A stretch of DNA of 4,574 nucleotides from a virus. Lineage: Duplodnaviria > Heunggongvirae > Uroviricota > Caudoviricetes. The position numbers were made by a program, and so were the translations under genes. The DNA is taken from IMG/VR virus record IMGVR_UViG_2740892270_000010, one strand, 5' to 3'. Below the pieces are notes generated by a model. The model saw only the letters and a program-made list of their open reading frames with translations. It was not told the DNA's origin and made no database searches. Numbering within the stretch: the stretch's first letter is position 1; each line of letters opens with the position of its first letter. Shown here in pieces: positions 2,694-4,574 of this stretch.

Positions 2694-2856
2694 GATTCCT
2701 CCTTGCTGCCAGTCGCAACCATTTTTTATCAACCAGGCTAGCGGTATATCCGAGCAGTGTTGGTATTTCGGATGGCTTCAGCTCAGGCTTACGCTTACGA
2801 CGATTTGATACTCTGTAGATGTGCCCGTTCATGACACGAATAAGCGGTGTAGCCAT
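2686..2856 (-). CDS. ninE: NinE-family small basic protein
   Basis: Hand translation gives [56 protein letters not shown] (56 aa), matching DLP12 NinE as recalled. Strong AGGAGG 4-5 nt upstream; its ATG overlaps the ybcN TAA as TAATG. Below the ORF-track cutoff. Confidence 0.8.
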   Translation of the reverse strand: MATPLIRVMNGHIYRVSNRRKRKPELKPSEIPTLLGYTASLVDKKWLRLAARRNHG

Positions 2857-3311
2857 TACGCCTCCTGCTTATCGCGCAGCTGCTGGTATTCACAGCTCTG
2901 CGGAATTGTCAGGTGGCAGCCGATATTCATCGCCCAGGCTTCGACTTTGCACAGGAAGATGTACATCTCGCCGGTTTCCAGCTCTGACGTATGGCGGAGG
3001 GATTGGACGGTGGTGACCTCGCCGGACACGACATCTACACGGTCTTTGCTTTCGTAGCCGAGATAGGTGTGCTTCATCGCGTCTTTGACCCACTCAGGCG
3101 TAGCGAAGGTCTTGCCGCGGGCGATGAGATATTCGCTGATCTCCGTGTACCACATGTGGCTGAGCGCGTTCTGCGACAGGCTGCGCTTCTCGCGCCACGG
3201 CTTAACCTGCAGGCGTAAGCATTGCCCGGCATCCAGCAATGGCTGAATCTGCTGGCCGATGGCCGCGAAGTTACCGCGATGGAGTTTGATGCCGTCTACT
3301 GGCAGAGTCAT
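2856..3311 (-). CDS. ybcN: NinB-family protein (YbcN-like; recombination mediator / DNA base-flipping protein)
   Basis: 151-aa product with the NinB-type motif ...WREKRSLSQNALSHMWYTEI... (compare lambda NinB ...RNRSLDQNRKLWA...). GGGAGG Shine-Dalgarno 4 nt upstream of the ATG at 3309-3311 (minus). Gene order ninB-ninE-ybcO-rusA-Q is canonical lambdoid. Confidence 0.9.
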   Translation of the reverse strand: MTLPVDGIKLHRGNFAAIGQQIQPLLDAGQCLRLQVKPWREKRSLSQNALSHMWYTEISEYLIARGKTFATPEWVKDAMKHTYLGYESKDRVDVVSGEVTTVQSLRHTSELETGEMYIFLCKVEAWAMNIGCHLTIPQSCEYQQLRDKQEA

Positions 3312-3403
3312 ACGGCCTCCCTAACGGAAACCGCAGAATGCAGAAAATCGCAGGTGCATTTCTGCATCTGTGACAAGGTGATGAGTTCAGATTGTGGTCG
3401 CAT
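3308..3403 (-). CDS. Possible 31-codon micro-ORF upstream of, and translationally coupled to, ybcN (YlcH-like position)
   Basis: Minus-strand ATG at 3401-3403 is preceded by AAGGGGA with a 5-nt spacer and an in-frame TAA just upstream. Product MRPQSELITLSQMQKCTCDFLHSAVSVREAV*; its TGA overlaps the ybcN ATG as ATGA. No homology claim possible. Confidence 0.3.
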   Translation of the reverse strand: MRPQSELITLSQMQKCTCDFLHSAVSVREAV

Positions 3404-3488: not shown

Positions 3489-3575
3489 AACTATCTTGAA
3501 GCCAAAACAGTGATCTTCGCTTTAAAAACCTTGTATACTTTCACCTAATCACAGCCAGAACTATGGATCTAACCA

Positions 3576-3953
3576 ATGACCAACAAAGAAAACAAAGATA
3601 AATATATTAACAAGTTCAAGAAAGAGCTTTCAAAATATATACAACCAACTGCTGGAGTGGACATTCAATTATTTAACTCTAAGGATGGTGGTGGTGTAAT
3701 TAAAGCCACTTTGAATAGAAGTGGAAAAAGAAAATCATCTATTGCTGGTAATTTTACTAAATTAGGTGAGGCAATTACCTCGAGTGGGCAGAGGGTTTTT
3801 GGTGGTGATCTATCAAATGTGAATTTTTACGGAACAAATACGATTTTTGATGGAGATACAATATTTTTAATTAAATCACCTGATTCAGAGGAGTGGTCAT
3901 CACAAAAAGCTTCCAAAGACGTAGAGGGCATCGTATTTGGAGGGAAAAAATGA
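3576..3953 (+). CDS. Hypothetical 125-aa Lys/Gly-rich soluble protein (AT-rich cargo gene A), function unknown
   Basis: 378-nt open frame in DNA of roughly 25-30% GC, where random frames are dense in stops. ATG start; no signal peptide or transmembrane segment; no family I recognise. A TATACT -10-like element lies at 3534-3539 upstream. Confidence 0.6.
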   Translation: MTNKENKDKYINKFKKELSKYIQPTAGVDIQLFNSKDGGGVIKATLNRSGKRKSSIAGNFTKLGEAITSSGQRVFGGDLSNVNFYGTNTIFDGDTIFLIKSPDSEEWSSQKASKDVEGIVFGGKK

Positions 3954-4035
3954 TTAACATTACTACTAAGGATGCACTCAAGTCAGTGGTGAAGTAAGAG
4001 ATCTAGTAATTCTTCTTGAAACTGATGGAAAAACG

Positions 4036-4377
4036 GTGTCTGATTATTTGCAGCCAATCCCTCCCAAAAAAGATACACACTGGAGCATGATTTTCATTCC
4101 GGTAGCAATTTATATACTACTTAATCTTGTATACATTATTGCTCACCCATTATTTCCTGAAAAATATCTAAAAACATCAACATCTATATTTCTATTCATT
4201 TCCTTCATATTAAGTGCAATAGTAGCATATTTTGTTTTCCATAAGCATAAATCTGCCACTCTATCCATATGCAGCTTAGTGTTCTTAGTGTTAATTGTAG
4301 GTGCTAACGTAGGGTTTATCAGTTACAGCGACCTAACACAAAAAGCGACGCAAAAATTAGATAGTTTGTCTAAATAA
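4036..4377 (+). CDS. Hypothetical small integral membrane protein with three predicted transmembrane helices (AT-rich cargo gene B); start codon uncertain
   Basis: Open frame in AT-rich DNA. Three hydrophobic stretches of about 20 residues (IFIPVAIYILLNLVYIIAHPLF; SIFLFISFILSAIVAYFVF; LSICSLVFLVLIVGANVGFI) separated by short charged loops. First start in frame is GTG at 4036; an internal ATG at 4087 would give 96 aa. Same strand as gene A, 82 bp downstream. Confidence 0.6.
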   Translation: MSDYLQPIPPKKDTHWSMIFIPVAIYILLNLVYIIAHPLFPEKYLKTSTSIFLFISFILSAIVAYFVFHKHKSATLSICSLVFLVLIVGANVGFISYSDLTQKATQKLDSLSK

Positions 4378-4484
4378 TTATGTTGCCATGCGAAGTATGC
4401 ATGGCTGCATGTCTGCCTTCCATTTAAAATGGGCTAAGACCTATAACCCTAAATATTATTCTTTATTATCTTCTTTACCACTTC

Positions 4485-4574
4485 GGTGATGCTGCCAACT
4501 TACTGATTTAGTGTATGATGGTGTTTTTGAGGTGCTCCAGTGGCTTCTGTTTCTATCAGCTGTCCCTCCTGTTC
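4485..4574 (+). mobile_element. IS1 insertion sequence, left terminus (IRL) and first 90 bp; continues beyond the window
   Basis: GGTGATGCTGCCAACTTACTGATTTAGTGTATGATGGTGTTTTTGAGGTGCTCCAGTGGCTTCTGTTTCTATCAGCTGTCCCTCCTGTTC is the IS1 left end as I recall it, including the ~23-bp terminal inverted repeat. Confidence 0.9.
4540..4574 (+). CDS. insA: IS1 InsA (transposition regulator), N-terminal 11 codons only; truncated by the window edge
   Basis: GTG GCT TCT GTT TCT ATC AGC TGT CCC TCC TGT translates to MASVSISCPSC, the InsA N-terminus. Confidence 0.8.
   Translation, partial: MASVSISCPSC

Follow-up and report, generated by a model that had tools for sequence, protein, structure and literature searches.

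A frameshifted membrane-protein gene in a lambdoid prophage fragment and its intact two-gene relatives, a candidate conflict module of Enterobacteriaceae

In lambda RexAB and in gp30/gp31 of mycobacteriophage Sbash, a soluble sensor is encoded together with a small membrane protein whose gene lies directly downstream (PMC6426596); according to the logic proposed for these systems, the sensor activates a membrane channel, leading to depolarisation and an aborted infection (PMC6426596). Two-component prophage defence is also represented by Butters gp30/gp31, in which a non-membrane protein interacts with the transmembrane protein encoded by the adjacent gene (PMC7542560). SieA of phage P22, a protein of 162–164 aa with three predicted transmembrane (TM) helices, is encoded by a lambdoid prophage, resides in the inner membrane and acts alone (PMC10883804). 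The present analysis concerns two small genes, A and B, in the IMG/VR record IMGVR_UViG_2740892270_000010, a stretch of 4574 bp (hereafter the window) which represents the late-regulatory, or nin, region of a DLP12-like lambdoid prophage. Gene A (3576–3953, plus strand), encoding a protein of 125 aa, is intact in the window, while gene B had been described in the original prediction as an open reading frame (ORF) at 4036–4377 of the plus strand, encoding a small three-helix membrane protein.

The ORF from GTG 4036 to TAA 4377, of 113 codons, is indeed present, but its boundaries are not those of the gene. With high confidence, it can be assigned to the 3' part of a 142-codon gene, the native ATG of which lies at 3950 and which is inactivated by a deletion in codon 9. 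Full-length gene B, the product of which is annotated as WP_000608370.1, starts at the ATG corresponding to window position 3950 in 46 of 5426 complete Escherichia coli genomes; in these genomes the same DNA is 99.6–99.7% identical and is annotated as genes for proteins of 125 and 142 aa. Alignment to one such intact allele (locus L001) revealed a single G at 3974 (plus strand) in place of GG, whereby GAT GGC ACT of the native frame, with GGC encoding Gly at codon 9, became GAT GC ACT. Translation from ATG 3950 therefore ends after 15 codons, and the residual ORF at 3950–3997 (plus strand) encodes MINITTKDALKSVVK followed by a stop codon. Codons 10–142 and the stop codon are preserved in the native frame at 3976–4377 (plus strand), where residues 10–142 of the E. 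coli protein, used as a tblastn query, were found with 100% identity; residues 1–8 are encoded in another frame.

The 113-codon ORF is the part of this remnant that follows the first in-frame start-type codon. GTG 4036 and ATG 4087, between which the choice of the start had been considered ambiguous, are the internal codons Val30 and Met47, and the ambiguity is an artefact, because a fragment of a pseudogene was read. Both codons are poorly served as restart sites: GTG 4036 is preceded by a weak GGA, and ATG 4087 has GGAG only 1 nt upstream. Accordingly, the ORF matches the family phrog_16940 at profile positions 30–142 of 142 (E 2.2e-74) and is a partial rather than a full-length member, while gene A matches phrog_18061 (E 9e-85). 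Both families are annotated as ‘unknown function’, so that membership names the family and is silent on the mechanism. Since residues 1–29 are missing from the ORF, the remnant has lost most of the constrained N-terminal module described below, as well as the coupling to gene A. Gene B in the window is most likely a pseudogene.

The frameshift allele was found in identical form in the IMG/VR locus L021, and at least 100 contigs of Shigella sonnei carry an annotation of exactly this 113-aa product as a hypothetical protein; the window copy therefore very probably belongs to S. sonnei, a lineage known for expansion of insertion sequences (IS) and accumulation of pseudogenes (PMC7373316). The occurrence of the same allele in L021 and in the S. 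sonnei contigs rules out a sequencing error as the cause of the frameshift. Programmed frameshifting as a rescue of this allele is unlikely and was rejected, since direct reading of positions 3971–3977 revealed no slippery heptamer.

Other damaged alleles of gene B were found in E. coli and Logan assemblies, namely, P0033, with a frameshift at the A-run after PPKK and a product of 58 aa, and P0035, truncated to 33 aa; in locus L025 a frameshift is located near codon 53 (8157–8161). Together with the window allele, these represent four independent natural lesions of gene B, a small number. In gene A only one lesion was seen, the insertion of IS1 at codon 48 in E. coli CV839-06 (locus L002), which is separate from the IS1 of the window; being polar, this insertion would block the expression of gene B too. 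Recurrent loss of gene B would be in keeping with a costly effector, within the limits of such small numbers.

The intact gene B product contains three hydrophobic segments, with peaks of 2.49, 2.52 and 2.41 in a 19-residue Kyte–Doolittle window. At least three such segments were obtained in 77 of 2000 composition-preserving shuffles, so that hydropathy alone is only moderately unusual. AlphaFold2 modelled helices at residues 46–68, 71–100 and 103–141 of the intact protein with pLDDT of 85–92, and the three hydrophobic helices noticed originally are thus upheld, as are the loops PEKYLKTSTS and HKHKSAT and the polar C-terminal tail. TM1 comprises native residues 47–66 (4087–4146, plus strand) and has a conserved face formed by P51, Y55, N59 and Y62; TM2 comprises residues 79–98 (4183–4242, plus strand) and is followed by the loop K99-H100-K101 of the cytoplasmic type; TM3, residues 106–124 (4264–4320, plus strand), contains the invariant motif GANVG and the intramembrane N120. 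Residues N59 and N120 are invariant even in family members with 34–35% identity. A conserved intramembrane asparagine is typical of helix–helix oligomerisation or of a polar pathway. An amphipathic C-terminal tail follows TM3.

The N-terminal residues 1–45 form an acidic module with pI 4.9, ending in the invariant DYLQP and modelled, with low confidence (pLDDT about 56), as a beta-hairpin and a helix. The net charge of the first loop, between TM1 and TM2, varies between −1 and +1, whereas that of the second ranges from +1 to +2 and equals +2 in most members; K99-H100-K101 is invariant in the alignment of 17 clusters, and of these residues the most divergent members retain K99 alone. These loop charges favour, although not decisively, the N-in/C-out topology, which is the most probable one.

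Comparison of E. coli, Enterobacter and Klebsiella prophage lineages, with protein identity of 65–90%, gave dN/dS of 0.07–0.19 for gene B and 0.07–0.11 for gene A. For gene B these values are taken as stronger evidence of a real coding sequence than hydropathy, and they indicate that the 142-codon frame is the selected one and is under strong purifying selection. Hardly any variation across the 17 clusters was seen in the 36 N-terminal residues, and dN of the first 45 codons is 0.010 against dS of 0.93 between E. coli and Enterobacter; the frameshift has thus struck the module that is under the strongest constraint in the protein.

Gene B had originally been considered alone, but it was never found without gene A. 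The two genes are adjacent and overlapping in all 30 retrieved loci, which include prophages of E. coli and Enterobacter, five Klebsiella-type prophage backbones, IMG/VR contigs, metagenome fragments, a plasmid pair and the pair of locus L030. The gene A product is soluble and basic, with pI 9.5. The native ATG 3950 of gene B overlaps the stop codon of gene A as ATGA, and the Shine–Dalgarno sequence GGAGGG at 3939–3944 is separated from this ATG by a spacer of 5 nt; both signals are retained in the window together with the intact upstream gene A. The end of gene A with the gene B signal reads TTTGGAGGGAAAAAATGA. The C-terminus of protein A, GGKK, in which G122, G123 and K124 are invariant, is encoded by GGAGGGAAAAAA at 3939–3953, which is at the same time the ribosome-binding site and spacer of gene B; this segment is under dual constraint, coding and translational. 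By this arrangement gene B is translationally coupled to gene A.

Upstream of gene A, a putative −10 element of the A-B promoter, TTGTATACT, is located at 3531–3539 of the plus strand (TATACT at 3534–3539), 37 nt before the ATG. It is the only upstream motif kept across divergent prophage lineages, as GTATACT, GTATAAT or GTATGAT; the remaining intergenic sequence could not be aligned. Homology between the prophage lineages extends from about 45 nt upstream of gene A to a hairpin about 10 nt past the gene B stop codon. This hairpin (4379–4411, plus strand), with the core GCCATGC-N7-GCATGGC at 4385–4405, closes the module; every prophage lineage retains it, locus L022 through a G.U-compatible change, and it has a folding dG of −16.6 kcal/mol and a z-score of −2.7. 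No T-run follows it, and no canonical intrinsic terminator was found after gene B in the prophages, whereas in the plasmid form a canonical terminator takes the place of the hairpin. The flanks are variable and always on the strand opposite to A-B: one side is occupied by NinB-like or DUF1367 genes, the other by P, Ead/Ea22, HNH or unknown ORFs. The bounded homology and the differing opposite-strand flanks define A-B as a discrete moron, with transcription opposed to that of the early-right operon. The GC content of the island with genes A and B is 34–35%, compared with 52–56% for the nin genes. Judged by these sequence features, A-B is a low-GC, self-contained moron, and the slot that holds it in lambdoid prophages is variable in its cargo.

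The most divergent full-length gene B product, P0032 of Klebsiella pneumoniae (WP_130949283.1), has 34% identity and is encoded on contigs of about 3.5 kb which carry only the genes of a PF03090/PriCT_1 replicase, Rop, a 128-aa protein and P0032 itself. The 128-aa protein is a homologue of the gene A product (35% identity, E 1e-22). In this plasmid form, rep, A' and B' overlap successively by 7 and 17 nt. The backbone is that of the abundant small Rep/Rop plasmids of Enterobacteriaceae, and in sister plasmids the slot after rep is occupied by unrelated cargo. In plasmid p6 of Klebsiella sp. PO552 (CP037447.1; locus L032), genes of DarT (PF14487) and of a DarT1-associated NADAR antitoxin (PF22397, E 2.7e-87) were found just after rep, at 655–2440. 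Such plasmids, tiny and considered ‘cryptic’, are thus suggested to exchange conflict modules at the post-rep slot.

The nin slot of prophages likewise contains diverse cargo. In K-12 DLP12 it is represented by ylcH-ybcM-ybcL-ybcK-ylcJ-emrE. In the prophage of GCA_030132385.1 (locus L008), the nin slot adjoining A-B contains, at 5297–6980, a gene of a 377-aa protein with the colicin pore-forming domain PF01024 (E 3.6e-7) and a Colicin_im gene (PF03857) convergent with it; a DndB homologue is encoded nearby. The colicin-like and Colicin_im genes are predicted to constitute a prophage-borne bacteriocin-like toxin/immunity pair. The slots in which A-B is found therefore also house toxin–immunity and toxin–antitoxin or defence cargo, as in L008 and in the sister plasmid with DarT and NADAR.

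The distribution of the family is narrow. An exhaustive search with the gene B profile hidden Markov model (HMM) among 1.84 billion representative proteins retrieved seven proteins, all of them family members or fragments, as well as P0036; the seven gene B representatives are those remaining at 50% identity. The match of P0036 to the N-terminal module of gene B (E 3e-5) was set aside as uninformative, the Pfam matches being weak and inconsistent. This protein of 571 aa contains four tandem repeats of about 36 aa (NVRDLVKKFENEGLTVEDYL...) at about residues 290–440, after a helix-turn-helix (HTH) resembling sigma-70 region 4. No relative was detected in a scan of species-representative genomes. 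Gene B is encoded by none of the isolated phages in INPHARED, according to megablast and tblastn, and by no PLSDB plasmid, the E. coli and Klebsiella forms each having served as a tblastn query, and literature searches by accession and context found no paper naming these proteins.

Pfam and NCBIfam gave no significant match for A, B or their divergent relatives, and gene A with nine homologues had no Pfam match at E up to 1. Sub-threshold matches of a generic TM-region kind, such as 7TMR-DISM_7TM, YfhO and ECF_trnsprt, were rejected as reflecting hydrophobic composition. No solved structure related by sequence was found. Class I holins also have three TM helices; for B there is no match to holin families in Pfam, the holin matches in BFVD have E of at least 0.67, and the lysis cassette essD/rrrD of the prophage lies elsewhere.

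The likeness of A-B to RexA/RexB and Sbash gp30/gp31 consists in the arrangement: a two-gene prophage unit expressed independently of the lytic programme, with the soluble protein first and a polytopic inner-membrane protein of about 140 aa next. In sequence the systems differ. RexA is a protein of 279 aa, and both RexA and Sbash gp30 have the DUF4747 motif, whereas the 125-aa gene A product has no Pfam match; comparison of the gene A profile with lambda RexA by hhalign gave a probability of 0.3%. RexB has four TM helices, whereas B has three and a soluble N-terminal module, and the hhalign probability for this pair is 1.7%. The rexAB genes are located in the immunity region with cI; A-B, by contrast, belongs to the nin region, where it occupies the opposite strand, and is found on plasmids as well. 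With Butters gp30/gp31 the module shares the combination of a non-membrane and a transmembrane protein encoded by adjacent genes; the Butters system belongs to phages of an unrelated host phylum, has another number of TM helices and no sequence similarity, and the PADLOC models gave nothing. The logic of A-B may thus be inferred, by analogy and without homology, to resemble that of RexAB, Sbash gp30/gp31 and Butters gp30/gp31.

A-B is tentatively read as a two-component conflict module composed of a sensor and a membrane effector, a reading held with more doubt than confidence. In such a module, cytoplasmic protein A would bind or control the conserved N-terminal module of B, which is predicted to be cytoplasmic; upon a trigger, for example, infection by another phage, B might oligomerise through the polar intramembrane face, and the oligomers would compromise the inner membrane, so that the infection would be aborted or excluded. 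A role as a superinfection-exclusion or abortive-infection effector, suggested in the original prediction, is reasonable and is currently the best guess, given that the lambdoid prophage carries the module as a moron of low GC content on the opposite strand; this part of the prediction agrees with the nature of B as a phage-borne three-helix inner-membrane protein, but the copy to which it was applied is not intact. Taken as a whole, the explanation combining the gene anatomy with a conflict module is given a little less than even confidence. It is possible, though doubtful, that intact A-B constitutes a previously unrecognised two-gene anti-phage family, with a soluble sensor of 125 aa and, as the effector, a three-TM protein of 142 aa whose N-terminal cytoplasmic module serves for control, unrelated by sequence or fold to RexAB, SieA and catalogued defence systems, common to nin hotspots of prophages and to the Rep/Rop plasmid slot, and lost in S. 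sonnei by a frameshift.

Several observations weigh against this interpretation. Search of PADLOC-DB v2.0.0 gave no significant match, the best being ‘4TM effector’ with E 0.17 for B and none for A, and ten other family members, among them the most divergent, had no PADLOC match; fold searches likewise gave no significant match for B or A. Guilt by location is weak, since genes unrelated to defence, emrE and ybcL of DLP12 among them, occupy the cargo slots too. The A and B families are tiny and confined to Enterobacteriaceae, and the comparative power is therefore low. The positive-inside rule is not clear-cut, since the C-terminal tail is also net positive, and a consensus promoter scan did not report the −10-like motif at 3534–3539. 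The gene B remnant, moreover, may be translated at a low level by reinitiation.

Among the alternatives, A-B could represent a toxin–antitoxin (TA) addiction module stabilising the prophage or the small plasmid, with B as a membrane-damaging toxin and protein A as the antitoxin, or the reverse. This explanation is unlikely, and it overlaps with the favoured one, because aborted phage infection is also an outcome of many TA modules. The two genes overlap, are small and share a transcript, in which the one for the soluble protein comes first; they are found on a prophage and a small plasmid alike, in agreement with the general appearance of type II systems as two small overlapping genes on mobile elements; in addition, the same slot of a sister plasmid holds a bona fide TA pair, and B was inactivated four times independently, compared with the single lesion of A, which is also polar on B. 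On the other hand, Pfam scans of A and its homologues detected no DNA-binding domain recognisable as that of an antitoxin (HTH, RHH or AbrB), no palindromic operator is evident at the putative promoter, and high-copy Rep/Rop plasmids hardly need addiction. The location of the strongest conservation in the soluble N-terminal module of B suggests regulated signalling over simple toxicity. Exclusion of the SieA or HK97 gp15 type, in which B would block DNA injection from the inner membrane and A would be an accessory protein or chaperone, is quite improbable. Gene B encodes a small protein of the same size class and predicted three-TM topology as P22 SieA, likewise in a lambdoid prophage, and the moron layout is compatible with expression in the lysogen, where SieA is expressed. 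Against this, hhalign gave a probability of 0.2% for the gene B profile and P22 SieA, and direct reading of B revealed no motif FxRYPxEAxxFNK, characteristic of SieA, which is encoded at immI. SieA is sufficient alone (PMC10883804), whereas B is always paired with A; a phage-specific injection blocker would be odd as the sole cargo of a 3.5-kb Klebsiella plasmid, and the best-conserved part of B is probably cytoplasmic.

A role outside conflict, as a membrane-anchored replication or maintenance factor or as a small transporter or stress protein serving the host, deserves little credence. The pair adjoins replication genes in both contexts, being convergent with P in the prophage, and its overlap of 7 nt with rep in the plasmid implies co-translation with rep; the presence of emrE and ybcL in DLP12 shows that non-defence genes are housed in such slots. 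In prophages, however, A-B is on the strand opposite to the replication genes, and in Klebsiella-type prophages several unrelated ORFs lie between them; the occurrence of the pair in only 46 of 5426 E. coli genomes implies that these replicons can do without it, sister plasmids replicate although their slot carries different cargo, and no transporter family was matched significantly, the best Pfam scores being below the cut-off. As for the S. sonnei allele itself, the assumption of an intact gene would make the 113-aa ORF a functional, N-terminally truncated membrane protein, which is very improbable. The allele is widespread in S. sonnei, gene A is intact, and the downstream 133 codons have no further lesions, but their complete identity to the E. 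coli protein merely reflects the recency of the lesion. The N-terminal module lost or uncoupled here is the most constrained one, neither 4036 nor 4087 has good initiation signals, the prophage around the gene is in decay, and S. sonnei is known for IS expansion and pseudogenes (PMC7373316). The alternative of an immunity protein of a pore-forming bacteriocin (colicin or microcin), put forward together with the effector reading, is by now largely refuted and can hardly be entertained. Immunity proteins of the colicin E1 type have about 113 aa and three TM helices, a similar size and TM number, and in L008 a colicin pore-domain gene is located about 1.2 kb from A-B. That gene, however, has its own adjacent Colicin_im gene, and no bacteriocin gene was found in the window or in the other 29 of the 30 loci. 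Pfam immunity families, whether of colicins or microcins, gave no match to B at E up to 0.1, the comparison by hhalign with the L008 Colicin_im protein yielded a probability of 0.1%, and the true protein, of 142 aa, has an extra conserved soluble N-terminal domain and no sequence relationship to PF03857. The homologue search among immunity and abortive-infection (Abi) families, proposed as a check of the prediction, thus yielded no Pfam immunity, PADLOC, RexAB or SieA match.

For the window itself the result is mainly corrective, a pseudogene fragment having been recognised in a decaying Shigella prophage. Intact A-B represents a compact, strongly conserved and horizontally mobile module of an uncharacterised family, and may reasonably be considered a candidate for a new, small system of the defence or TA type. 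Should a role in defence or addiction hold, A-B would add a sensor and membrane effector encoded in about 0.9 kb to those of clinically relevant E. coli, Klebsiella and Enterobacter, and would draw attention to the P-ninB junction of lambdoid prophages and to small cryptic Rep/Rop plasmids as sites where similar cargo may be sought. Only a modest impact is expected, because the scope is narrow, comprising 46 of 5426 E. coli genomes and seven representatives, and many such modules are already known.

The remaining part of the window is represented by typical genes of the region. An nmpC/ompC-like porin gene is located at 173–1249 of the plus strand, and the minus strand contains quuD, encoding the Q antiterminator (1438–1836), a YlcG-like small ORF (1907–2047), rusA (2044–2406), ybcO (2403–2732), ninE (2686–2856) and the NinB-like ybcN (2856–3311). 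Beyond the module, the final 9 codons and the stop codon of the replication gene P (RSGKEDNKE) are found at 4456–4486 of the minus strand, convergent with gene B, and an IS1 end inserted in this gene occupies 4487–4574, with 88 of 88 bases matching the annotated IS1A end in L002. The IS1 junction in gene P of the IMG/VR contig L021 is identical to that of the window. Compared with E. coli references, the porin gene has lost 67 bp at 212/213, and with them the ribosome-binding site, the ATG and most of the signal peptide; the listed start of its ORF at 173 is accordingly spurious. This lesion is very recent, since L021, otherwise identical to the window, lacks the deletion. The prophage carrying this copy of gene B is decaying, as shown by the IS1 insertion in P and the porin deletion. 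An Rfam search of the window matched no RNA family. Two terminator-like hairpins with T-tails are located at 3331–3366 of the minus strand, directly upstream of ybcN on the early-right transcript, where a nin-region terminator similar to lambda tR2 would be expected; the A-B moron is inserted right beside them.

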